From the NCBI GenBank assembly GCA_964599235.1, contig CAZRDX010000007.1, forward strand, positions 156,941 to 220,940: DNA of 64,000 nt. The letters run 5' to 3'. Position 1 is the first letter of the stretch. The number at the start of each line of letters is the position of its first letter. Below the pieces are notes generated by a model. That model saw only the letters and a program-made list of their open reading frames with translations, was not told the origin of the DNA and ran no database searches. The translations under genes were made by a program, and so were the position numbers. This document shows positions 21,518-43,710 of this stretch, in pieces. Source of the DNA: an uncultured Rikenellaceae bacterium (GTDB lineage: Bacteria; Bacteroidota; Bacteroidia; Bacteroidales; VadinHA17).

Positions 21518-21532
21518 ATGATCCTCTCCCCG

Positions 21533-24500
21533 ATGAAAAAAAGGTTCTCACTCCTGATCTTGCTGCTCCTGCCTTTCCTGATGCCTCTGCCTGAAGCCGG
21601 AGCGCAGGGAGGTATGACCGACACGGTCAACGTTTATTATCCCGGCCGCATCCGGCTCAAGCTCAAGCACGAACTGCTGGACGAGGTGGGTCGTGTCGCC
21701 CCCTCCGGCCGCAAGTCGGCCATCGTCGAGACCGGCATACGCCGTCTGGATGATCTGAACAGGAAATACGGTGTCAAGAGCATCCGCCGTGTCTTTCCCT
21801 TTTCCCTGCGTTTCGAGGAAAAACACAGAAAATACGGTCTGCATCTTTGGTATGAGCTGGAGTATGACGGCGATACCGATCCCCGGGCCATGGCCGGGGA
21901 GTATGCCCGTCTGGAGGAGGTAATGATCGCCAAGCCGGTGTATGTGAAGGTGCCCCTTGAGGGAGACCAGAAGCCCGTGGTGGTCATGCCGGACACGCTG
22001 CACACTCGGGGTGTGCGTCTCACCACGCCGGGCGGCAGCACGCTCAAGTCGGCCCTGGCCGACAGCATCCCCGGCGTCTCTTTCAACGACCCTTTCCTGC
22101 CCGACCAGTGGCATTACTACAACGACGGCCGCATCGGCACCAAAGGTGTCGACATCGACCTGCTGAAGGCCTGGACCAAGGCCACCGGCGACACCAACGT
22201 CATCGTCTCGGTCGTGGACGGCGGCATCGACCTGGAACATGAGGATCTGAAGGACAATCTCTGGACCAACTGGGCGGAGCTGAACGGCGAGGAAGGCAAG
22301 GATGATGACGGCAACGGTTACGTTGACGACATCCACGGTTACAACTTCGTGTACAACTCGCCGGTGGTGACGCCGCACCATCACGGCACCCATGTGGCCG
22401 GCACGGTAGGTGCCGTGAACAACAACGGCATCGGTGTGGCCGGCGTGGCCGGCGGCGATGGCTCGGGCAACGGCGTGCGGCTGATGTCGTGCCAGGTGTA
22501 CGACGAGCGGGGCGGCGCCGGCAACTATGCCGCAGCGATCGTCTACGGTGCCGACAACGGCGCCGTCATCTCCCAGAACTCCTGGGGCTACAAGCAGCCC
22601 GGTTTTTTCGAGCCGGAGGTGTACGATGCGGTGCGTTATTTCATCGCCGAGGCGGGACAGTATGAGGGCAGTCCCATGCGCGGCGGGGTGTTCATAGCCG
22701 CCGCCGGCAACGACGGCCGTGAGCAGACCCACTATCCCGGCGCCTTCGACGAGGCGGTGGGTGTGGCCGCCACCGGCCCTACCGGCCAGCCCGCCCCCTA
22801 CAGCAACTACGGCGACTGGGTCGACATCTCCGCCCCCGGCGGCGACCAGGCCTACTTCGGCGAAAAAGGAGGCGTGCTGAGCACCCTCCCCGACAACCAG
22901 TACGGCTACTACCAGGGCACCTCCATGGCCACCCCCCACGTCTCGGGGGTGGCCGCACTCATCGTCGCCCGTTTCGGCGGCAAGGACTTCCGGGCCGAAG
23001 ACCTGAAAAAGATCCTCCTCAACGCCACCACCCCCTTCCTCTTCGACAGCCAGGGCAAGTTCGGCAGCGGTAACCTCAACGCCCTGCTGGCCCTCGAGAA
23101 GAACGAGTTCATCGCCCCCGACCCCATCACCGACCTGCGGGCCGACGAGATCTTCCACAACGAGGTGCGCCTCAAATGGACCGTCCCGCGCGACTCCGAC
23201 GACTTCCAGCCGGCCTACTTCTACCTGGCCATGGACGACGAACCCATCACCGCCGCCAACTTCGGCCAGCAACAGGTGTTCCGCATCCTCAACTATTACG
23301 AGGCCGGCACCGAGCTGGCCGTCACCGTCACCGGCCTGCTGAAACTCACCGACTACTGGTTCGCCATCAAATCGTCCGACCGTCACGGGAACATCTCCGA
23401 CATCTCCAACATCCTCAAGGTGACCACCACCGACGAACCCCACTTCCACGCCCCCCAACGTTCTTTCGAATACATCATCGACGTCCGGGATAACCCGGTG
23501 AGGACGGCCACCTTCCCCATCTCCAACATCGGGAAAGGCATCATCTACTGGAACAGCTACACCGTCAACGAGAACCCCTGGTGGATCCCGCTGGAAGAGT
23601 GGCACGACCATCTCGACTCGCTGAAGAAGAGCGCCTCCGGCCTCAAGAGCGCCAAACAGACCCTCTATCCGCTGACAGGTACGAAAGGTGAAGAGTTCGC
23701 CGAATACTGGAAAGACGACAAGACCCTTTACTACGAAGGCTATACGTATGTCTACGCCGATCCCACGGCACTTGTGGGAAGCAACAACATCAACACGGGG
23801 CTGATCCATGCCACACGCTTCCAGACCACGGAGGGCGACTTCCACCTCACCCATCTGGAGATGGGCCTCTTCACGGTCACCCGCGAGCCGGTCTACATTG
23901 AGATACGTAAAGGCTCCGACAAACTGGAGGAGGCCCGGCCCGTACTGGTGCAGAAATACATCCCCGACACCACGGGGGTGCTCCGACTGGCCCGCGTCCC
24001 GCTCGCCCGTACACTGCATTTCGACAAGGACGAATATTTCTGGGTGATGCTCTATTTCTCAAAGCGGGAGCCCAAACCCCTGCTTGTCCATAAGAGCATT
24101 TACTTTCCCAAGACCTTTTATGTCTCGTTCGACAACGGCAACACCTTTACCGAGCAATGGCAACTTTTGGGCAATGTGGTCCCTTACCTGTATGCATACA
24201 GCACGGGTGAGGACATGTCGTACACCTTCATCCATCCCACCGAGGGTGAGCTGCATGAGGGGGAGAAGCAGGACATCCGGCTGACGGTCGATGCCAGCCG
24301 CATACGCAACGGCCGCCACATCGCCACGGTGGGCATACGCACTTCCGACAGGAACGTGCCGGGGGTGGGCATCGAGGTGAAGGTGACCGTCCGCGGACAG
24401 CGTGCCGAGGCCGATCTGAAGGAACAGTATGATTATGATGTGTATATCGGTCGTGACAACCACCTGCTGATGCCGGTGAAGAACATCGGTCTCGACTCGC

Positions 24501-27500
24501 TCCGTATCTGGGACATCACCGACGATGCCACGGGAGAGAGTGTCCGTGATTTCACCGACACCGTCCGTATCGGCGTACACGACACCCGTGATGTCTCTTT
24601 TGTGTACACTCCCACGGTCACAGGTATCCTCACCCCGCGTTTCACGCTGCACACCAACATCGGCGAGCTGCAGGTGAAGACCCAGATGCGTTCGATGGTC
24701 GCTCCCGTGATAGGGGCGTATCTCGACCGTGACAGCCTGTCCCTCGCCACCGGCCAGAAGGACCGGGTACATCTCACCCTAACCAACGTCGGACCAGAAG
24801 GGACGTTCCTGAACTACGACCTCGACCATTACGATCCGGCACGTCTGACCAACGGGGCCCTCTCCTGTACCTTCGGGTATGTCCTGTCCACCTCCGACGA
24901 TGCCGTCCACCCGTTGCCGTCACAGTGGATCGCGCTCGAACATTACGGGCTTACCCCGCCGATGAGCAAATGGTACCGTTATGTCCATCTGCCCAACGGC
25001 TTCCCGTTCTATAACAAGATGGTCGACTATATCATCGAGATCGGTTCGGGAGAGCTCTTTATCTACGGGCTCGGAAGCTTCGACTTCGACAACCCTTCCC
25101 TGCGCGACCGGGCCAAAGGTGTGATCGCGCCGCTGCATCTGAACATCAGCGGTGAACTGGTGCGTTCTTACTATCACGACTTCGGCGACAAGTATGTCTT
25201 CACTTATGTGATGCAGCTTCGTAAACGTCTTCCCACAGGATGGTACCAGAAACTCAAGAACATCACCTACCAGGTAGTGCTGTACCGCGACGGCACCGTC
25301 GAGTTCAACTACCTTGACGTGGACGCTTTACAGGAAGTGCCTGAACTGAAGTACACCGTGGGCATCCAGGGCCCCATGCCCGGCCAGTCGATCTTCTACC
25401 ACACCTATCACGACACCACGAACTATGTGCACAGCGGACTTTCCCTGCGTTTCATCCCCAACCGGGATCTTCCTGTCATGACCATCTCGTCGGTGCGTAA
25501 GGGTATGCTGGGCAGGAACGATACCGCCACTTTCGCCGTGGATATCGATCCGGCGCTGTATGGTCATCATCTTCCTGCCGGGAACTATGAAACGCCGCTG
25601 GTAGTCTACAGCAATGCCGATTCTTCGGCCTATGAGTTGCCTCTCACCGTGGAGGTCAGGGGCATTGCCGACCTCAGTGCCGGCGACACGTTGTTGTTCG
25701 GCCTCACCAACCTGGGATACGACACCCTGCAATACCTGCGGGTGGACAATGCCGGCTCAGGGACCGCAAGGATCATCTCGGTAACTTTTTCCGATCCCGC
25801 TTTCTCAGTGGATGATACGCTCACACTGGTACCCGGCTATGCCAACATCATGCTGCCGGTACGTTTCACCCCGGCCCATGCCGGTACGACCACCGCCACA
25901 ATGACACTGGTCTTCGACAACGGTCACAGCGAGCAGGTATGGCTCCGGGGCACTGGCCGGCCCGATCCTGTCTATACGGTAGAGATCGAGCAGGATATCT
26001 CCCGCACCCTCCGGGGTGGCGATACGGTGAGCATCCCCTTCCGGGTGATCAGCCACGACAACGGCGCCGACCTCGACCTGGTGTTCCACAACACCGTCAT
26101 CAGCAAGGCCACCACCCCCGGCATCCCGGCTGCCTCCCAACCCAAACCCGACACCCTGCAGCTTTACGGCTACACCTGGCAGGTGAGCGACTCCACCCGC
26201 AGCTTCTTCAAATGGAAGGATGTCAAGGCCGACCCCCGTGCCGTAGCCTACAACATCCAGCGCAACGAGCCGCAGAGGATGGCTTTGCCGTTCCGTTTCC
26301 CCTTCTACGGGGAGATGTTCGACACCATCTGGATCTCGATGCAGGGTTACGTGTCGGTCTTTGAGCCGGAGAACGATGATTTCCATCTGGAGTTCCGGCC
26401 CGGCGACGGCCAGCGGGGGATGATCGCACCATTCTTCTCCGATTTCATCCCCGACGGTCCCAACAGCCGTGTCTGGGTCCTGGAGGAGGACGACCGGGTA
26501 TATGTTTTGTGGGACGGTTACCGCGGCTCGTATGCCGGCGGTGCCGGCGGCGCCGTCTATTTCCAGCTGGAGCTGGTACGCAACGGCTCGATCTATTTCC
26601 ACTATCTGAGCGTGAGCAACTTCACCTTCACGTTGCAGTACGGGCTGGAGAGCCCCGATGAGCGGGAAAAGCTGGAGACACCCCACTCCTGGATCCTCAA
26701 GTGGAGCGTCGTGGCCGACACCACCACCCTCGCCATCACCCCGCCCCTGCGGCTCAGGATGAACTCGGGCGATACGAGAGATCACCGGCTGCTCCTCTCC
26801 GCCGAACATCTTTACCGCAGCGGGGTCTACCACGACACTCTCGAACTTTCCACCAACAGCCTTACCCAGCCACGTTACCTCATCCCCGTGACACTCACCG
26901 TCGAGGGTACACCCAAGGTCGAAGCCCCCGACAGCCTCGTTTGGGAGGAGGAGATCTTCGTACAGAACAAAAAGATCAGGAAAAGGTTCGTCCTCACCAA
27001 CACCGGTCACGACGTGGCCGAGGTGAACACGATCGTCACAAGCGGCCTTACGGATGCCCGCCTGTATGACGACAAGGGGGAAGAGATCAAGCGCACCTCG
27101 CTGGGCACGCTTTTCCGTCCCCTGCAGCTGGCACCGTGGGACCGTCTCACGCTCGAGCTGGAGATCTCGCTGCCTTCTCTTGCCGACCAGACGGGGACCG
27201 TCACTTTCGAGGGTAATTTTCCCTCCGTGGCGATACCGGTAAAGGCCCGTGTGGTCAGCTCACCGGTCTTCACCTGGGATGCTGCCGACCAGCATTTCCT
27301 GCTCAACAACACCGCAAAGGGGATCTACCGTTTCACCTTGCGCAACGAGGGGGAGACCGACCTGCATTTCCGGGTCATTCCGGCTATCATCCCTTCGGAA
27401 GAGGGGGAGGACACCCCGCCGCGCGACACGATCGTGGAGGAACTGGGCCGCTACCAGTTCCTGCAGCCTACGACGGTCGACTCCCTGGCCGTCGACAGCA

Positions 27501-29065
27501 AGGAAAAAGCCGACGGCTATGAGACTCCGCTCATCGAGGTATGGCTGGCCTTCGCCAACGACTTCACCGCCCCGCCGGGCGGCTTCTACCTCACCCACAT
27601 CAAGGTGAACGCCATCTTCAAGCAACTGGACGAATACATCCGCATCCAGGTATGGAAGGGGGGCGACAAGCCGATGGAAGGTGAGCTGGTCTACCAGCAG
27701 GACTTCGTCACCGACAGATATGTGACGGAGCAGTGGGTCTATTTCCCGCTGAAACACCCACTCAACTTCAACGAGGGTGAGCGATTCTTCCTGGTGGTGA
27801 TCCCCCCGTATGCCTCGCGCTATCTGGGTTACGACATCGCTCCTAACCAGCAGGCCGTGGAGCACTGCTGGGCGGCCAACTACCAGTCGTGGGCCGAGCA
27901 CTGGAACTGGCAGCAGTACAAGAACCTGCTGCGTATCTACAAGATACGTGCTCTGACCGCGGCAGGTGAGAACCTGTGGCTCGAGCTCGACCCGCTCGAG
28001 GGGGTCATCCCCGGCGGCGGCAGCCGGGAGGTGGTGACCTCCGTCGACCCCGTACTGGCCGGCAAAGGCACCCATCAGGCCCTCGTGAAGGTAAACACCA
28101 ACGATGTCAACCATCCCCACGACCATTTCTCGCTGACGGCCGAAGTCAACGGCCCGCCCGATATCCTCTTCCGGCCCAACCTCTACCATGACACAGTCGT
28201 CATCGTAGAGACGGAAGACAAGACACTCAACTATCTTTTCGAGGACCCGGAACAGGAAGAGGTGGAGGTCACACTGGACGATCACCAGCAGGCGGTCCGT
28301 CCCGTCCTGGAGCGTACCGGTCCCAACACGCTGCAGCTCCGTTTCCATACCGGCTACAGCAGTGCCGGTCTTTACCGCTATACCCTCACCTTCACCGATG
28401 AGGCAGGCAATATGGTGAAGGATGAGCTGCTGGTGAAGGTGCTCGATAAGAACCGGCCGCCGGTGCTCAATCCCGATTATGCACGGATCACGATCAACAT
28501 GGCCGACGAGGAAGTGCTGACCGTTGATCCTGCCGGGCTTTTCACCGATCCCGACGGGGATGTGTTGCAGATATATGCCGGCAACTACACGCCTGAGGTA
28601 CTCGACATGGCTTTGGGCAACCATTTCATCGATCTGCATCCTCTGCAGCCGGGGGTGGGTTTCGTGGTCTTCGCCGCCGATGACGGCCATGAGGGAGGCT
28701 TTGTGGCTTACGGCGTCTATGTGCAGGTGATCAACGATGCCGGCACTTCGGCCACCGCCGCTGATGCGCTGGTGCACGATGCCGAGGTGCTGGTCAGCCA
28801 CGGGGGGACTTTCGCCCTCTATCCCAACCCTGTCCAGACAGGCCATCCCCTCCATCTCATCTACAAACTCGACACCACGGCCCACATCAGGCTGGAGGTG
28901 TACGATGTGCAGGGCATCCGCAGAAGCGTGTATGAAGCATCGCGCCAGCAGGCCGGCATCCACAGCACCTTACTCGACATCTCCGGCCTCCGCCAGGGGA
29001 TCTACTTCTGCCGGCTGATGTTCGACGGCCACATCATGGAAACGAAAAAGATCATCATCCGCTGA
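21533..29065 (+). CDS. Giant S8 (subtilisin-like) serine protease with FN3/Ig-like, NIDO-like and T9SS C-terminal sorting domains
   Basis: Catalytic triad VSVVDGGID / HHGTHVAGTVG / GTSMATPHVSG; oxyanion AAAGNDG; C-terminus FALYPNPV...GIYFCRL...KKIIIR. Alternative start at 21518. Confidence 0.92.
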   Translation: MKKRFSLLILLLLPFLMPLPEAGAQGGMTDTVNVYYPGRIRLKLKHELLDEVGRVAPSGRKSAIVETGIRRLDDLNRKYGVKSIRRVFPFSLRFEEKHRKYGLHLWYELEYDGDTDPRAMAGEYARLEEVMIAKPVYVKVPLEGDQKPVVVMPDTLHTRGVRLTTPGGSTLKSALADSIPGVSFNDPFLPDQWHYYNDGRIGTKGVDIDLLKAWTKATGDTNVIVSVVDGGIDLEHEDLKDNLWTNWAELNGEEGKDDDGNGYVDDIHGYNFVYNSPVVTPHHHGTHVAGTVGAVNNNGIGVAGVAGGDGSGNGVRLMSCQVYDERGGAGNYAAAIVYGADNGAVISQNSWGYKQPGFFEPEVYDAVRYFIAEAGQYEGSPMRGGVFIAAAGNDGREQTHYPGAFDEAVGVAATGPTGQPAPYSNYGDWVDISAPGGDQAYFGEKGGVLSTLPDNQYGYYQGTSMATPHVSGVAALIVARFGGKDFRAEDLKKILLNATTPFLFDSQGKFGSGNLNALLALEKNEFIAPDPITDLRADEIFHNEVRLKWTVPRDSDDFQPAYFYLAMDDEPITAANFGQQQVFRILNYYEAGTELAVTVTGLLKLTDYWFAIKSSDRHGNISDISNILKVTTTDEPHFHAPQRSFEYIIDVRDNPVRTATFPISNIGKGIIYWNSYTVNENPWWIPLEEWHDHLDSLKKSASGLKSAKQTLYPLTGTKGEEFAEYWKDDKTLYYEGYTYVYADPTALVGSNNINTGLIHATRFQTTEGDFHLTHLEMGLFTVTREPVYIEIRKGSDKLEEARPVLVQKYIPDTTGVLRLARVPLARTLHFDKDEYFWVMLYFSKREPKPLLVHKSIYFPKTFYVSFDNGNTFTEQWQLLGNVVPYLYAYSTGEDMSYTFIHPTEGELHEGEKQDIRLTVDASRIRNGRHIATVGIRTSDRNVPGVGIEVKVTVRGQRAEADLKEQYDYDVYIGRDNHLLMPVKNIGLDSLRIWDITDDATGESVRDFTDTVRIGVHDTRDVSFVYTPTVTGILTPRFTLHTNIGELQVKTQMRSMVAPVIGAYLDRDSLSLATGQKDRVHLTLTNVGPEGTFLNYDLDHYDPARLTNGALSCTFGYVLSTSDDAVHPLPSQWIALEHYGLTPPMSKWYRYVHLPNGFPFYNKMVDYIIEIGSGELFIYGLGSFDFDNPSLRDRAKGVIAPLHLNISGELVRSYYHDFGDKYVFTYVMQLRKRLPTGWYQKLKNITYQVVLYRDGTVEFNYLDVDALQEVPELKYTVGIQGPMPGQSIFYHTYHDTTNYVHSGLSLRFIPNRDLPVMTISSVRKGMLGRNDTATFAVDIDPALYGHHLPAGNYETPLVVYSNADSSAYELPLTVEVRGIADLSAGDTLLFGLTNLGYDTLQYLRVDNAGSGTARIISVTFSDPAFSVDDTLTLVPGYANIMLPVRFTPAHAGTTTATMTLVFDNGHSEQVWLRGTGRPDPVYTVEIEQDISRTLRGGDTVSIPFRVISHDNGADLDLVFHNTVISKATTPGIPAASQPKPDTLQLYGYTWQVSDSTRSFFKWKDVKADPRAVAYNIQRNEPQRMALPFRFPFYGEMFDTIWISMQGYVSVFEPENDDFHLEFRPGDGQRGMIAPFFSDFIPDGPNSRVWVLEEDDRVYVLWDGYRGSYAGGAGGAVYFQLELVRNGSIYFHYLSVSNFTFTLQYGLESPDEREKLETPHSWILKWSVVADTTTLAITPPLRLRMNSGDTRDHRLLLSAEHLYRSGVYHDTLELSTNSLTQPRYLIPVTLTVEGTPKVEAPDSLVWEEEIFVQNKKIRKRFVLTNTGHDVAEVNTIVTSGLTDARLYDDKGEEIKRTSLGTLFRPLQLAPWDRLTLELEISLPSLADQTGTVTFEGNFPSVAIPVKARVVSSPVFTWDAADQHFLLNNTAKGIYRFTLRNEGETDLHFRVIPAIIPSEEGEDTPPRDTIVEELGRYQFLQPTTVDSLAVDSKEKADGYETPLIEVWLAFANDFTAPPGGFYLTHIKVNAIFKQLDEYIRIQVWKGGDKPMEGELVYQQDFVTDRYVTEQWVYFPLKHPLNFNEGERFFLVVIPPYASRYLGYDIAPNQQAVEHCWAANYQSWAEHWNWQQYKNLLRIYKIRALTAAGENLWLELDPLEGVIPGGGSREVVTSVDPVLAGKGTHQALVKVNTNDVNHPHDHFSLTAEVNGPPDILFRPNLYHDTVVIVETEDKTLNYLFEDPEQEEVEVTLDDHQQAVRPVLERTGPNTLQLRFHTGYSSAGLYRYTLTFTDEAGNMVKDELLVKVLDKNRPPVLNPDYARITINMADEEVLTVDPAGLFTDPDGDVLQIYAGNYTPEVLDMALGNHFIDLHPLQPGVGFVVFAADDGHEGGFVAYGVYVQVINDAGTSATAADALVHDAEVLVSHGGTFALYPNPVQTGHPLHLIYKLDTTAHIRLEVYDVQGIRRSVYEASRQQAGIHSTLLDISGLRQGIYFCRLMFDGHIMETKKIIIR

Positions 29066-37750: not shown

Positions 37751-38011
37751 AGGATAATCAAAGCTGCTGCTTTCCCTTTTCCGGCAGGGTCATCTCACCG
37801 ATCATCCCCACGCTCCCACCTTCCGGCACATCCGCCCTTTCTTCCCTTACTGGCTGACAAACTATATGTTACAAGTCGTATTCCGCAAAAAGGACCAGGA
37901 ACGGACACCGAATTTACAAAAATTTTCACACAACTTCTTCCCTCCCGTCATATACAATCAGTCATAATAAATTGTATTGAAAACACTTACAAAAGTCACC
38001 GGATACACATC

Positions 38012-38043
38012 CTACGTAGACAACTACGTAGCCAGCTACGTAG
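38012..38043. repeat. Triad of CTACGTAG palindromes at 12-bp period (site 2)
   Basis: CTACGTAG at 38012-38019, 38024-38031 and 38036-38043 in an AT-rich intergenic region. Confidence 0.95.
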
Positions 38044-38118
38044 ATCTTTCATTACAATGTGATTATCAAGATCTTACCGAAACCTGATGCAACGGGGTTG
38101 TAACTGCGGGAAACATGG

Positions 38119-38769
38119 TCATTCTGTTTTTCTTTTTTTTCTGATCAGGTCGCTTGCCCGGGATTCCTCGCCACGTGCTATTCTCCGGATGTTGGAGCGG
38201 TGGGTCCAGATGAGGAGCAGGGCCACGAAGATGCCGAAGATCCGAAGCGATAAATAGGGAGAAGGCAGGATGAACCAGACGGTGACGGGGAACATGGCCC
38301 CGGCGATCATGGAGCTGAGCGACACGTAATTGAAGAGGAAGACCGAGACGATATAGGCGGCGAGGCTGATGAGCGTGGCTTCGGGGGCGATGGCCAGGGC
38401 CACGCCGAGGAAGGTGGCCACCCCTTTGCCTCCGCGGAAACGCGCAAAGAGGGGGAAGATATGTCCCAGCACGGCCGCCAGGCCCAGCACCAGCTGACGG
38501 ATCATGTAAGCTTCTTCGCCCGGCAGGGGCAGCTGATGGGTGAAGGTGGCCAGGCGCACCGCCAGCCATCCTTTGAAAGCATCGAACACCAGCACCACCA
38601 CCCCCGCCTTCCAGCCCAGGACCCGGAAGGTGTTGGCCGCACCGGCATTGCCGCTGCCGTGCTCACGGATGTCCAGATGAAAGAAAACCTTGCCGATGAT
38701 GATCGAAGAGGGGATCGAACCGAGCAGGTATGCTGCCACGACCAGCAGCACAAAACAGAGGTTCTCCAT
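38119..38769 (-). CDS. plsY: Glycerol-3-phosphate 1-O-acyltransferase
   Basis: YLLGSIP, DIREHGSGNAGAANTFR, GHIFP.F..FRGGKGVAT, HRSNIRR. Confidence 0.95.
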   Translation of the reverse strand: MENLCFVLLVVAAYLLGSIPSSIIIGKVFFHLDIREHGSGNAGAANTFRVLGWKAGVVVLVFDAFKGWLAVRLATFTHQLPLPGEEAYMIRQLVLGLAAVLGHIFPLFARFRGGKGVATFLGVALAIAPEATLISLAAYIVSVFLFNYVSLSSMIAGAMFPVTVWFILPSPYLSLRIFGIFVALLLIWTHRSNIRRIARGEESRASDLIRKKRKTE

Positions 38770-38844
38770 GGCCGGGGACTTTTTATTTTCCGCAAATTAA
38801 CAAAAAAAAAACACAGATATGTTCCGGAACGGGTGTTCACAAAA

Positions 38845-38868
38845 AAAGGGGATCCGCGGATCCCCTTT
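38845..38868 (-). terminator. Terminator of maeB-mdh (24-bp perfect palindrome)
   Basis: AAAGGGGATCCGCGGATCCCCTTT, followed by a T-run on the minus strand. Confidence 0.8.
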
Positions 38869-38888
38869 CATTTTCTCCCGGAGGAGGA

Positions 38889-39824
38889 TCAGAAAAGATG
38901 CATATTGTCGAGGACATCCATCACCTCGCGCACAGCTTTGGCCGAAGTATTGAGGAGTTCGCGTTCCTGATCGTCGAGCTCCACCTCGATGATCTCCTCG
39001 ATACCGTTGCGGCCCAGTTTCACCGGCACGCCGATGTAGATATCCTTCAGTCCGTATTCGCCGTTGAGGTAAGCACATACGGGCAGGATACGTTTCTGGT
39101 CCATGACGATCGACTCGACCATCTGGGCCACGGCGGCGCCGGGAGCGTACCATGCCGAGGTGCCGAGCAACTTGACGATCTCGCCCCCTCCTTTCTTGGT
39201 ACGTTCAACGATGGCATCCAGCTTTTCCTTGTCCATCAGCTGTGTTACGGGGATACCGGCCACCGTGGTGTACCGGGGCAGGGGCACCATCGAGTCGCCG
39301 TGGCCGCCCATCAGCAAGGCCTGAATGTCCTTGGGCGAGACGTTCAGCGCCTCGGCGATGAAGGCACGGTAACGGGCCGTGTCGAGCACTCCAGCCATAC
39401 CGAACACCTTGGAGGTGTCCTTCTTCGAGGCCAGATGCGCGGTGTACGACATCACATCCAAGGGATTGGTCACCACAATGATGATGGCCTCGGGCGAATA
39501 TTTCATCACGTTCTCGGTCACCGACTTGACGATGGCCGCATTGGTGCCGATGAGGTCATCACGGCTCATCCCCGGCTTGCGGGGTTTGCCCGAGGTGATC
39601 ACCACCACCTCCGACCCTTCGGTCTTGGTATAGTCGTTCGTACTGCCCGTGATACGCGTGTCGAACATCTGCACGGGCGACGACTCCCACATGTCGAGGG
39701 CTTTGCCCTCGGCCTGGTTCTCCACCACGTCCAGCAGGACGATCTCATTGACGATGTCTTTCTCTGCAAGAACGTTGGCTACGGTAGCACCTACGTTTCC
39801 TGCTCCGATCACTGATACTTTCAT
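38889..39824 (-). CDS. mdh: Malate dehydrogenase (LDH-like)
   Basis: VIGAGNVG, GKALD, RKPGMSRDDL, VTNPLD, LDTARY, GGHGD.MVP, SAWYAP. Confidence 0.95.
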   Translation of the reverse strand: MKVSVIGAGNVGATVANVLAEKDIVNEIVLLDVVENQAEGKALDMWESSPVQMFDTRITGSTNDYTKTEGSEVVVITSGKPRKPGMSRDDLIGTNAAIVKSVTENVMKYSPEAIIIVVTNPLDVMSYTAHLASKKDTSKVFGMAGVLDTARYRAFIAEALNVSPKDIQALLMGGHGDSMVPLPRYTTVAGIPVTQLMDKEKLDAIVERTKKGGGEIVKLLGTSAWYAPGAAVAQMVESIVMDQKRILPVCAYLNGEYGLKDIYIGVPVKLGRNGIEEIIEVELDDQERELLNTSAKAVREVMDVLDNMHLF

Positions 39825-39869
39825 GATACTTCTCTTTTTTATGGTTATGGTTAAAGCTATGAACGAGAC

Positions 39870-42146
39870 TCAAAGTTTGGTCCATTCCTGTGCGTCGACG
39901 ACGGCCATGGCCGTGACGTCGACGATCTCCTGCACCGAGCAGCCCATCTGCAGCACATGAATGGGTTTGCCGATGCCCATCAGGATGGGGCCGATGGCTT
40001 CCGAACCGCCGATCTCCTGCAGCATCTTATAGGCGATGTTACCGGCGTTCAGCGACGGGAAGATGAGGGTGTTCACCTTATGGTCGACCAGCTTGGAGAA
40101 AGGGAAGATGCTCTTCTGCAGGCTGTCGTTGAGGGCAAAGTTGGCTTGCAACTCGCCGTCGACGATCAGATCGGGATGATCGCGGTGCAGGATCTCCACC
40201 GCCCGGCTCATCGTCTTGGGCGAATCACCCCGCTGTGCCGACCCGAAGTTGGAATACGACAGGAGGGCGATGTGCGGCTCGATGTTGAACTTGTTCACCT
40301 GTTCGGCCGTCAGGAGCGTGATATCCACCAGCTCCTCGGCGGTAGGCAGGATATTGACCGTGGTGTCGGCGAAGAAGAAAGGTCCTTTGGGGGTCATCAT
40401 GATGTACATCCCCGCGATGGTCCGTACGCCGGGTTTGGTGCCCACGATCTGCAGCGCCGGCCGGATGGTGTCGGCATACTTGCTCTCGTAACCCGAGATG
40501 AAAGCATCCGCATCGCCCAGTTCCACCATCATCACGCCGAAGTAATAAGGATTGTGGATGAGGCTCTCCGCCTCGTCGAGGGTGATGCCTTTGCGCTGCC
40601 GTTTCTCGAAAAGCACCTTGGCATAACGCTTGCGTATGCGTGCTTCCAGCGACGAGTGAGGATTGATGATCTTCACCTTGTCCAGCTCCAGGTTGTTCTC
40701 TTCGATGATCTTCTTGATCTTCTTGGTATCCCCCAGCAGGATGGGTTTGGCGATACCTTCCAGGTAGACGATCTCGGCAGCCTTCAGGACGTTGAAGTTA
40801 TCGGCATCGGCGAACACCACCCGTTTGGGGGATTTTTTGGCTTTGTTGGTAATGAAGCGGATGAGCTGGTTGTCGTTGCCGAGGCGTTTGTTGAGCTCGT
40901 TGCGGTAGGCATCCCAGTCCTTGATCTTCTTGCGTGCCACGCCGCTCTCGATAGCTGCTTTGGCCACGGCGGGTGCCACGGTGGAGATCAGACGCGGATC
41001 AAGCGGCTTAGGGATGATGTACTCTCGGCCGAATGTAAGGTTCTTGGTGTTGTAGGCGATGTTGACCACCTCGGGCACGGGTTGTTTGGCCAGTTCGGCC
41101 AGGGCGCGTGCCGCGGCGATCTTCATCTCCTCGTTGATGGCTCTCGCCCGCACATCCAGTGCGCCGCGGAAGATGAAGGGGAAGCCCAGCACGTTGTTGA
41201 TCTGGTTGGGATAGTCCGAACGTCCCGTGGCGAAGATGATGTCCTTCCGGGCGGCGACGGCCTCCTCGTAGGTGATCTCCGGCATAGGGTTGGCCATGGC
41301 AAAGACGATCGGATCCTTGGCCATGCTCTTGAGCATCTTAGGGGTGAGCACCCCCGCCACCGACAGTCCCAGGAAGACATCCGCCCCCTTGAGGGCTTCC
41401 TCGAGCGTCTCCACGTCGCGGTCGGTAGCGAACATCTGCTTGTACTTGTTGAGATCCTTGCGTTTGGTGCTGATCACACCCCGGCTGTCGAACATCACGA
41501 TGTTCTCCTTCTTCATCCCCATGGCCACATAGAGCTTGGTACATGAAATCGCCGCGGCACCCGCCCCGTTGACCACCATGGTCAGATCTTCGATCTTCTT
41601 ACCATTGAGTTCCAGCGCATTGACCAGCCCCGCCGCCGAAATGATGGCCGTACCATGCTGGTCGTCATGCATCACCGGGATATCGAGCTCGGCCTTCAGC
41701 CGCTCCTCGATCTCGAAGCATTCAGGTGCCTTGATATCCTCGAGGTTGATCCCCCCGAAGGTGGGGGCGATGAGCTTGACCGTCTCGACGAACTTGTCGA
41801 CATCCTTGGTATCGATCTCGATATCGAAGACATCCACATCGCCAAAGATCTTGAAGAGGAGCCCTTTCCCTTCCATCACCGGTTTGCCGGCCTCCGGACC
41901 GATGTCGCCCAGTCCCAGGACGGCCGTTCCGTTGGAGATCACGGCCACCAGATTGCCCTTGGCAGTGTATTTGTAAACATCCTCGGGCTTGCTGTGGATC
42001 TCAAGACAGGGCTCAGCAACCCCGGGGGAATAGGCCATGGAAAGATCCCGCTGCGTACTGTGCGGCTTGGTGGGGATCACCTCGATCTTTCCCGGACGCC
42101 CCTTGCTGTGATACTCAAGAGCATCCTTCTTACTTATCTTGGTCAT
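39870..42146 (-). CDS. maeB: NADP-dependent malic enzyme with C-terminal phosphotransacetylase-like domain
   Basis: [54 protein letters not shown]; PTA-like tail KRVVFAD...DGELQAN. Start placed at ATG 42146. Confidence 0.95.
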
Positions 42147-42380
42147 GGTCGTTCCTTTTTGGTTTTTCAGGATCATTCCTGTTACAAAGCTAAAAATATT
42201 TGGCGCTTTCAGGTATGATATATCCCCATCCTTCGATATGTTTTACGATAGTTTTTACGGAGGATGGTTGTAAAACATATCCTGGGACGATACAACCTTG
42301 GTTCATTTATGGTAATTTTACAGAACATTTGAAACAAACGTTTTAGTCAATATTCCATAACCATTAAAAGTTCAAGAACT

Positions 42381-43688
42381 ATGTCCAACATCAAAAAGAA
42401 ACTACAGGAAAAGATCGAGGGGTGGCGTCCGCGGACGGCCCGTCTTGCCAAGGAATTCGGTGATGTGAAGCTGAGTGAGGTGACCATTGGCCAGGCCATT
42501 GGCGGCATGCGGGGTGTGAAGTGTCTGGTCACGGACATCTCTTACCTCGACCCTTATGAAGGTATCCGTTTCCGTGGTTACACCATCCCCGAGGTGCTCG
42601 AGAAGCTTCCCAAGCCGGAGGGGGCCGAGTATCCGACGGTGGAGTCGTTCTTCTATCTGCTGCTCACCGGCGACATCCCCACCGAGGAGGATGCCCGTGA
42701 GATCGGCGAGGAGTTCAAGGCCAGGGCCAAGGTACCCCAGTATGTTTTCGACGTCATCAACGCCCTGCCCGAAGACAGCCATCCGATGGTGATGTTCTCC
42801 ACGGCCATCCTGTCGATGGAGAAGGAGTCGATCTTCGCCCGCAAGTACAAGGAGGGCATCAGCAAGATGGATTACTGGGATCCCACTTACGAGGATGCCA
42901 TGAACCTGCTGGCCAAGCTGCCCGAGATCGGGGCATACATCTACCGCAAGAAGTTCAAGGGTGGTGACATCATTCCGCCCGATCCGAACCTCGATTTCGG
43001 AGCCAACTTTGCCCACATGATGGGTGTGCCGCATCCTTATGATGAGCTGTCGCGGCTTTATTTCATCCTGCACAGCGACCACGAGAGCGGCAACGTGAGT
43101 GCCCACACCGGTCATCTGGTGGCCAGCGCCCTCTCGGATGTGTACTATGCCATCTCTGCCATGATCGACGGTCTGGCCGGCCCGCTGCACGGCCTGGCCA
43201 ACGAGATGGTGCTGCGCTGGATCCAGGGGGTGATGGAAAAGATGGGAGGCAAGGTGCCCGACGAAGAGGAGATGAAGAAATTCGTCTGGGACACCCTCAA
43301 CTCGGGCCAGGTGATCCCCGGATACGGTCATGCCGTGCTGCGTAAGACCGACCCGCGTTACACCGCCCAGCGTGAGTTCAGCCTCAAGCATCTGCCCGAC
43401 GATCCCATTTTCGCCTATGTGGACATCCTCTACAAGGTGGTACCCGACATCCTCCGCGAACACGGCAAGGCTAAGAACCCCTGGCCCAACGTCGACGCCC
43501 AGTCGGGGGTCATCCAGTGGCACTATGGCGTGCGGGAGTACGACTTCTACACCGTGCTCTTCGGCATCGGCCGCTCCTTGGGTGTCCTCTCGAACATCAT
43601 CTGGGACCGCGGACTGGGCTATCCCATCGAACGGCCCAAGTCGGTCACCACGGACATGCTCGAAGAGGTGGCAGGCATCAAGAAATAA
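42381..43688 (+). CDS. gltA: Citrate (Si)-synthase, eukaryotic/type I-like
   Basis: IGGMRG, GIRFRG, LHSDHESGNVSAH, LAGPLHGLAN, PGYGHAVLRKTDPR, NPWPNVDA, ERPKS. Confidence 0.92.
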   Translation: MSNIKKKLQEKIEGWRPRTARLAKEFGDVKLSEVTIGQAIGGMRGVKCLVTDISYLDPYEGIRFRGYTIPEVLEKLPKPEGAEYPTVESFFYLLLTGDIPTEEDAREIGEEFKARAKVPQYVFDVINALPEDSHPMVMFSTAILSMEKESIFARKYKEGISKMDYWDPTYEDAMNLLAKLPEIGAYIYRKKFKGGDIIPPDPNLDFGANFAHMMGVPHPYDELSRLYFILHSDHESGNVSAHTGHLVASALSDVYYAISAMIDGLAGPLHGLANEMVLRWIQGVMEKMGGKVPDEEEMKKFVWDTLNSGQVIPGYGHAVLRKTDPRYTAQREFSLKHLPDDPIFAYVDILYKVVPDILREHGKAKNPWPNVDAQSGVIQWHYGVREYDFYTVLFGIGRSLGVLSNIIWDRGLGYPIERPKSVTTDMLEEVAGIKK

Positions 43689-43710
43689 TCCCCTGCCGAC
43701 AGCACAAAGC

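Follow-up and report, generated by a model that had tools for sequence, protein, structure and literature searches.

The 64,000-nucleotide stretch of DNA analyzed here (contig CAZRDX010000007.1 of an uncultured Rikenellaceae bacterium; this whole stretch is called the window) contains two triads of the 8-bp palindrome CTACGTAG, in which the copies follow one another at a period of 12 bp. We propose, with a probability of about 0.68, that these triads are copies of a recurring, cooperative binding site for the dimer of a small AbrB-type protein (mini-AbrB) that would repress its own gene, and that the sites have spread genome-wide in this lineage. This reading is carried by the findings that such arrays recur in related genomes, that they are conserved, that they are linked to the mini-AbrB gene, that their motif changes together with the protein, and that the protein has an AbrB-type fold; from these we infer the binding, its cooperativity, the repression, and any local effect.

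Two phased triads in the window

Six exact copies of CTACGTAG are present in the window, all of them within the two triads. Array 1 (positions 1056 to 1087, no strand assigned) has copies at 1056, 1068, and 1080, separated by the spacers GTTT and GATT, and array 2 (38012 to 38043, likewise without a strand) has copies at 38012, 38024, and 38036, separated by ACAA and CCAG. In dinucleotide-preserving shuffles of the window, the mean number of copies was 0.23 and the maximum was 2. A search that allowed one mismatch gave 12 copies relative to 8.9 expected, which is not an enrichment, and six of these 12 are the exact ones. When the window was scanned for any 8-mer occurring three times at a 12-bp period, without reference to a motif, only two places were found in the 64 kb, and these were the two triads; no degenerate phased array was found elsewhere in the window. 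An earlier note on this DNA, made from the sequence alone, had reported two triads of the same phasing and with differing spacers, and this observation is correct and far beyond chance.

Recurrence and conservation of the arrays

The triad pattern was then searched for in one genome per species. At least 110 loci were found, nearly all in eight Bacteroidales-type metagenome-assembled genomes (MAGs) with 5 to 22 loci per genome, and these array-rich MAGs came from vents, hot springs, and sediments. The numbers of loci were at least 22 in JBNGDI01, at least 19 in DQWH01, at least 17 in JALVJE01, at least 14 in WFRO01, at least 12 in DSCJ01, at least 9 in CAZYQV01, and at least 5 in each of JAMOUS01 and JAADHC01. 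A genome of the candidate phyla radiation (CPR), JAWVZY01, has at least two, and five other genomes have one each among the matches listed.

The arrays at the loci listed consist of three units (75 arrays), four units (33), or five units (2). Outside of arrays of three or more units, CTACGTAG was found in the 755 kb of these loci only as one pair and three single copies, one of them part of a degenerate array. The base at position −2 relative to the unit is A in 95 of 109 cases and the base at +2 is T in 92 of 110, and it appears from this flank bias that the true unit is the 12-bp palindrome A-n-CTACGTAG-n-T, with the units abutting.

In at least 20 sets of genomes, orthologous intergenic positions have retained an array. 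In alignments of these orthologous regions, the octamers and their phase are invariant, whereas the spacers, the number of units, and the surroundings drift, to the point that some flanks cannot be aligned. Judged from these alignments, the boxes bear the mark of purifying selection, in that they stay invariant amid such drift. The proposal of the earlier note that the triads are selected for recognition by a protein is borne out by this pattern, and a candidate for the cognate DNA-binding protein was found as well.

A gene for an AbrB-type protein downstream of arrays

Three loci that are orthologous to one another, L022, L034, and L085, each have a four-unit array that sits just past a conserved promoter-like stretch and ends 17 nt ahead of the ATG of a conserved open reading frame (ORF) of 60 residues. 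This ORF matches PF04014 (MazE/SpoVT-AbrB) with 34 bits and an E-value of 2.9e-8, above the gathering score. Homologous genes were found just downstream of the arrays at L060, L049, and L047, the last of which is in a CPR genome. In these six genomes of two phyla, an array is located 15 to 60 nt upstream of the mini-AbrB gene, and the encoded proteins have 58 to 65 residues. With L132 and L199 added, the loci with a CTACGTAG array in this position are L022, L034, L085, L060, L049, L047, L132, and L199.

A search with the single sequence of the 60-residue protein retrieved only two relatives, and a profile search retrieved 393 protein clusters. The best-matching proteins are about 58 to 65 residues long; the clusters stem for the most part from Bacteroidales MAGs and have generic names only. 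The AlphaFold model of the mini-AbrB (pLDDT 82.9, a per-residue confidence score) has a beta-beta-alpha-beta-beta topology, and the best fold matches in the PDB were MazE, the AbrB N-domain, SpoVT, VapB, C68, and Sso7c4. The mini-AbrB gene is solitary: an adjacent toxin gene, which a type II toxin-antitoxin module (MazEF/VapBC-like) would have, was absent from the neighborhoods checked, where the neighbors were cvpA, tyrS, a histidine kinase gene, a gene for a GH3 enzyme, and genes for hypothetical proteins. At L112, a PIN gene is located about 860 nt from the mini-AbrB gene and is not adjacent to it.

Two arrays of three CTACGTAGTTAA units each were seen in a Spechtbacterales (CPR) MAG, at L038:36-67 and L047:2619-2650. 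One of them precedes the mini-AbrB gene of that genome, and the other precedes a sequence that by eye resembles the start of a tRNA gene. The presence of arrays in this MAG indicates that the system crosses phylum borders.

Co-variation of protein and 8-mer

A metagenome scan for mini-AbrB homologues yielded 80 loci. Most of these homologues have two to five phased 8-mers at a 12-bp period, starting about 30 to 110 nt (mostly 45 to 75 nt) upstream of the ATG, and a motif-free scan of the same loci found phased triplets almost only upstream of the gene, the exceptions being a second array at L173 and one match at L128. The 8-mer upstream of the gene was found to change from one protein clade to another. 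Strict CTACGTAG arrays go without exception with homologues of the residue pattern SSYA(V/I/L)V(I/L)P, the CPR homologue reading DSYAVVIP. The clade SSYAVTIP has CTATGTAG or CTACGTAA, and TTACGTAA-type boxes belong to the clade SSYGVTLP and to more distant homologues; the arrangement CAACGTAT..AGCAGTAT..ATACGTTG occurs in both SSYAVTIP and SSYGVTLP. The clade SSYSVTIP has CTCAGTAT, and the set made up of CTCAGTAT, CTCAGTAG, TCATGAAT, and TTCAGTAA is distributed over SSYSVTIP (CTCAGTAT) and more distant homologues. The residue rule is imperfect, in that the homologue at L148 (SSYAVIIP) fits the residue pattern of the CTACGTAG clade yet has a CAACGTAT-type array.

At L173, in the TTACGTAA clade, two identical arrays (1362-1393 and 2919-2950) were seen, the second of them some 1.4 kb past the mini-AbrB gene, which is a hint that additional copies arise outside of the CTACGTAG clade as well.

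The candidate protein of the window's organism

The window was found in a single public run, a hydrothermal-vent metagenome. The same run has a 4.2-kb contig identical to the gene of a mini-AbrB, which we designate P0013 (MEKKKKGRVEVRHLTKIAGGSSYALVIPMDFVKRLGWKERQKLVIRLYGKKLVISDWEPKEK), together with its CTACGTAG array. The read depth of this contig is 13.8, relative to 11.8 to 13.9 for the contigs of the window. P0013 matches PF04014, and we take it to be the candidate protein of the window's organism. In the closest relative found, the PlsY protein of which is 89% identical, the orthologous gene P0003 has an array and no adjacent toxin gene, and it is located in the conserved housekeeping neighborhood tsaD-efp-tyrS-cvpA that is typical of the window's lineage.

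The P0013 contig ends at the array, and for several contigs of the vent run the match to L132:2900-2932 is confined to the 33-nt array, with divergent sequence to either side. The latter contigs may be other arrays or else assembly fragments of the same locus. Repeat-induced assembly breaks may have caused the numbers of arrays in MAGs to be underestimated.

Proposed mechanism

In the mechanism that we propose, the arrays would be recognized by a homodimeric swapped-hairpin protein of the AbrB/MazE/SpoVT type, 58 to 65 residues in length and encoded elsewhere in the genome, P0013 being the candidate in this organism. The unit bound would be A-n-CTACGTAG-n-T, with three to five boxes abutting head to tail, and dimers would load side by side at 12-bp intervals to form a short cooperative nucleoprotein filament. 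At the gene of the protein itself, the array is placed between the promoter −7 box and the start codon, so that binding would repress the gene (autoregulation).

Arrays would have spread to dozens per genome in the CTACGTAG-specific subfamily, in intergenic DNA that is AT-rich and beside functionally unrelated genes. Among the loci listed, the 66 genes downstream of arrays represent 85 Pfam families and the 79 genes upstream represent 111. A pathway regulon was considered and rejected, the array-adjacent genes being functionally heterogeneous. Because the neighbors are unrelated, a global factor of the nucleoid-associated type would fit better than a pathway-specific regulator. The two arrays in the window would be two of these dispersed sites, and their local effect might be that of a roadblock or insulator between transcription units or, for array 2, of an upstream regulatory site for the sulfatase gene.

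A wider version of this mechanism is conceivable, although we are doubtful of it: the mini-AbrB might be a sequence-specific chromatin "punctuation" factor, short filaments of which would start on arrays in the AT-rich DNA between transcription units and serve there as roadblocks, insulators, or nucleation points for the silencing of neighboring AT-rich or newly acquired DNA, with the arrays able to extrude cruciforms. Such a factor would be a bacterial genome organizer of a kind not described so far.

Placement of the arrays and alternative explanations

The arrays are nearly always intergenic, with 43 in tandem, 16 in convergent, and 11 in divergent contexts. The 11 arrays that were called as inside an ORF apparently fall mostly in spurious small ORFs, with one real exception. 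This rare coding copy (L083:2196-2227 and L102:3802-3833) is in frame (36 nt) inside a conserved ORF of 357 residues, and the differences flanking it are of the third-codon-position type.

Array 1 in the window is situated between convergent genes, 75 nt past the stop codon of a gene for a gltD-like pyridine-nucleotide-disulphide oxidoreductase (a flavoprotein; 36 to 980, + strand) and 152 nt past that of an alkaline phosphatase family gene (1239 to 2774, − strand). Array 2 is situated 76 nt past the stop codon of plsY (PF02660; 38119 to 38769, − strand), which is upstream of it, and 274 nt ahead of the ATG of a downstream sulfatase gene (PF00884; 36131 to 37738, − strand).

Several results weigh against the interpretation of the arrays as binding sites of a mini-AbrB. 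The gene of the protein is absent from the window, and it was not seen in the fetched fragments of three array-rich MAGs (JALVJE01, CAZYQV01, and JAADHC01). In the other clades, dispersed arrays were not seen within 6 to 20 kb of the gene. Sixteen of the 70 classifiable arrays lie between convergent genes, unlike ordinary operators, and in tandem contexts 29 of 43 arrays are closer to the upstream stop codon than to the downstream start. A −7 box that fires into the array at close range was found only at the AbrB-like genes and at one other locus. The 70 nt on each side of the arrays are AT- and TA-rich (35% GC, relative to 44% in the other intergenic DNA of the same loci), which is not a feature of a simple operator. 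Furthermore, in 14 of the 33 four-unit arrays spacer 1 is the reverse complement of spacer 3, where 2.2 were expected, and because the binding of single boxes does not need dyad symmetry, this hints at hairpins, cruciforms, or a palindromic origin. The placement, the AT-richness, and the dyads keep open a structural contribution of the arrays, as RNA hairpins or DNA cruciforms, and also suggest that the arrays may have a roadblock, insulator, or architectural role. Classical operator geometry was also considered and rejected: the Bacteroidetes −7 boxes (TAnnTTTG) are at no consistent position relative to the arrays, except at the AbrB-like genes.

These results bear on an alternative in which the arrays are RNA hairpins (stabilizers or terminators in 3′ untranslated regions) or DNA cruciforms that have spread like repetitive extragenic palindromes (REPs), the AbrB-like gene being one neighbor among many. 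Any two adjacent units can form an 8-bp stem with a 4-nt loop, and a four-unit array was found to fold with −39.6 kcal/mol (z −10). At site 1, the left flank AGAATC pairs with spacer 2 and the next two bases (GATTCT) to give the dyad AGAATC-CTACGTAG-GTTT-CTACGTAG-GATTCT (1050 to 1081, no strand assigned), which as a single strand folds with −22 kcal/mol (z −6.5). Because spacers 1 and 3 are so often complementary in four-unit arrays, we read this dyad as the probable remnant of a symmetric four-unit array in which the fourth unit has decayed. The spacer complementarity, the location past stop codons (at a median of about 120 nt) and between convergent genes, and the AT-rich flanks, which favor cruciform extrusion, are all as expected of REP-like elements, and the CTAC/GTAG of the motif recalls the GTAG head of REPs. 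The REPs and bacterial interspersed mosaic elements (BIMEs) of Enterobacteria are likewise dispersed intergenic palindromes, often past genes or between convergent genes, with a GTAG-type motif, and some BIMEs bind integration host factor (IHF); as in these elements, an imperfect, hairpin-capable palindrome is found outside of genes. However, the octamer stays the same in arrays with pairing spacers and in those without, and the spacers of array 2 are non-complementary and give weak folds (−10.6 and −13.4 kcal/mol). Arrays of three units, which are the commonest, are unable to make one perfect hairpin. No Y1 transposase (of the REP-associated, or RAYT, type) or other transposase was among the 25 commonest Pfam families of the 145 array-adjacent genes, upstream or downstream, in a search limited to these genes. 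The arrays also differ from REPs and BIMEs in numbering dozens of copies, in their differing spacers, and in having a cognate AbrB-type gene with the same motif, and hairpins leave unexplained the clade-specific phased arrays in the promoters of most mini-AbrB homologues. It therefore seems unlikely to us that the arrays are REP-like elements, although hairpin formation and mini-AbrB binding are compatible and not mutually exclusive.

It could also be that another factor binds the arrays, with the mini-AbrB gene as no more than one of the conserved genes under its control. The binding by the mini-AbrB is predicted, and the three array-rich MAGs in which the gene was not seen in the fetched fragments would be in keeping with a different protein. 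Against this, a second protein would be needed, with a specificity that shifts along with the AbrB-like clades in many lineages. It is established that AbrB, MazE, VapB, and MraZ as a rule regulate their own genes through palindromes in the promoter, and complexes with DNA are among the fold matches of the mini-AbrB. We hold this explanation to be quite improbable and prefer the mini-AbrB as the protein that would bind the arrays.

As for transcription termination at the two sites in the window, a separate terminator-like hairpin, TTGGACAT..ATGTCCAA (1145 to 1176, − strand), follows the alkaline phosphatase gene at 57 nt from array 1 and fits an intrinsic terminator better than the array does; it is mentioned as context only. 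At array 2, no intrinsic terminator was found, the sole pattern match being on the + strand, where no gene ends. There was no Rfam match at the gathering score in the window, no tRNA gene in a tRNA scan of the window, and no public RNA run was found that contained the window sequence.

Two kinds of conserved sequence were seen beside arrays in other genomes. A conserved element of about 50 nt, CTTGAGTTCAAGAATTTAGTGCAACATTTAGTAAGTTGCACTATGAAAAAG, comes directly after the array in three MAGs (L002, L005, L008, L018, L025, L031, L072, L079, and L097); it contains the hairpin GTGCAAC-N9-GTTGCAC and is not present in the window. In the longest copies, the similarity ends past ATGAAAAAG and is followed by locus-specific sequence, and the copies at L002 and L008 diverge earlier. 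This element could be a promoter or leader, a terminator for the other strand, or a small mobile element. A second palindrome, ATTACTTTnnnAAAAGTAAT, is located 60 to 90 nt from the arrays at L029/L071, L087/L104, and L028/L108, and at L087/L104 it is followed by the −7-like box TACTTTTG; this region looks like a conserved promoter with an operator of its own.

The 37-kb segment and the IHF-like site

The earlier note had interpreted the triads as platforms for recombination or attachment, equipped with IHF sites and marking the ends of a 37-kb mobile island. Two observations are favorable to this. One is the sequence TATCAAGATCTTA (38064 to 38076, + strand), 21 nt from array 2, which matches the IHF consensus WATCAANNNNTTR exactly. 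The other concerns synteny. The block of citrate synthase, maeB (a fusion of malic enzyme and phosphotransacetylase), mdh, and plsY (38119 to 43690) is collinear with the relatives L200 and L202, and this collinearity stops directly past the plsY stop codon, beside site 2, where the array is absent in both relatives. Site 2 is therefore at a variable junction.

The island interpretation is nevertheless already largely refuted, and we consider it highly improbable. The identical arrays in related genomes, at least 110 in number, are found among housekeeping genes, and many are inside conserved synteny. The two window sites have no homology between their flanks and no target duplication, and the GC content is equal inside and outside of the 37-kb segment. 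No integrase or transposase was found when the genes on either side of the two sites and the larger ORFs between 3 and 38 kb were scanned with Pfam (four of these larger ORFs had no Pfam match, and a 111-residue ORF at 2625-2960 was left out), nor were such enzymes in the commonest neighbor families of the arrays. The genes between the sites, which include SusC/SusD pairs, peptidases, regulators, a kinase, and a sulfatase, are ordinary nutrient-acquisition genes of Bacteroidota without mobility genes. It had been suggested that relatives might show the gltD-like and plsY flanks joined without the segment. A break in synteny beside plsY was indeed found, but in L200 and L202 plsY is joined to hyp325-MscS-CdaA-FolP-Tmk and not to the gltD-like gene, and thus the predicted empty-site junction was not seen.

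The IHF-like match itself is real but appears to be a chance occurrence outside of the element. There is one match to WATCAANNNNTTR in the window relative to 0.8 expected, and 58 of 100 shuffles had at least one. Because only 5 of 112 arrays (those of the window and of the related genomes listed) have such a match within 100 nt, TATCAAGATCTTA is not a conserved part of the element. A common polarity of the triads had likewise been proposed on the basis of a shared ATACA..ATC upstream of them (ATACAGAATC and ATACACATC). This resemblance is present, but the arrays are palindromic and have no polarity of their own, and the flanks of the two sites, with 31 of 90 and 35 of 110 positions identical, are at the level of chance.

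Past plsY, the window has the sulfatase gene, genes with DUF1214 and DUF1254, and then SusC/SusD, peptidase, and regulator genes over about 35 kb, which are absent from the fetched parts of L200 and L202. One of these genes (21518 to 29065, + strand) encodes a subtilase (S8) of 2515 residues that has Ig-like domains and, at its C-terminus, a sorting domain for type IX secretion. An origin of the arrays from a phage or mobile element was also examined in 2.9 million viral contigs and rejected, the sole match being unrelated: at L203:8543-8700, units resembling CTACGTAGTGGG form a long tandem repeat, and no AbrB-like gene is close to it.

Comparison with known systems

The arrangement at the mini-AbrB gene is of a known kind, namely that of an AbrB/MazE-type autoregulator with a palindromic operator. 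MraZ is a protein of about 150 residues with two domains that forms rings, binds direct repeats of the GTGGG type at a 10-bp period, and is encoded at the head of the division (dcw) cluster. It resembles the system proposed here in its AbrB-superfamily fold, in self-repression through phased short repeats just upstream of its gene, and in its wider effects on transcription, whereas the mini-AbrB is a single domain of 60 residues with palindromic boxes at 12 bp, a solitary gene, and dozens of extra arrays. AbrB, Abh, and SpoVT of B. subtilis share the swapped-hairpin N-domain (fold matches 1yfb, 2k1n, 1z0r, and 2w1t), autoregulation, and many chromosomal targets; AbrB has a C-terminal tetramerization domain and no clear consensus, in contrast to the mini-AbrB, which lacks a C-domain and is associated with a strictly repeated 8-mer. 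The best matches in both sequence and fold are to MazE, VapB, and PrlF (PF04014; 1ub4, 2mrn, and 5l6l), which bind as dimers to palindromes in their own promoters. The mini-AbrB differs from these in that no toxin gene adjoins it in the neighborhoods checked, in having no C-terminal toxin-binding tail, and in having sites beyond its own promoter.

With respect to the sites, the nearest likeness is to MetJ, small dimers of which bind cooperatively to two to five tandem AGACGTCT boxes, which are abutting 8-bp palindromes centered on ACGT. MetJ, however, is a ribbon-helix-helix protein with an 8-bp period and a methionine regulon, whereas the period here is 12 bp and the neighbors are functionally unrelated. 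With respect to size, Sso7c4 and the C68 and C56 proteins of pSSV plasmids are DNA-binding dimers of about 55 to 60 residues that consist of the swapped hairpin only (PMC3159460). The mini-AbrB is similarly small and single-domain, and it has fold matches to 2l66, 3o27, and 7xi6; Sso7c4 differs in being described as a general chromatin protein of archaea without a defined site, in contrast to the strict motif in bacteria that is described here.

Searches of the literature with CTACGTAG gave primers and unrelated matches only, and no account of the protein family, of CTACGTAG arrays, or of operators phased at 12 bp for solitary mini-AbrB proteins was found in the literature searched, the nearest papers being on Sso7c4 and MazE. 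What appears to be new is the strict phasing within the arrays, the co-variation throughout the family, and the expansion of the sites across the genome.

Implications

Few global DNA-binding proteins have been characterized in the Bacteroidota, and the analysis gives a concrete hypothesis for one, in which the protein has 60 residues, the 12-bp box is strict, and the arrays are built in a defined way. It also cautions against taking dispersed phased palindromes for the borders of an island. The mini-AbrB family has several hundred members that carry generic or misleading "antitoxin" annotations, and if the interpretation is true, these would be re-annotated as solitary autoregulators. The family would then offer naturally occurring pairs of protein and operator with matching specificities, from which the reading of DNA by the swapped-hairpin fold could be learned, and one lineage would have expanded its operator genome-wide, which may represent a way in which a local repressor becomes a nucleoid-associated factor.

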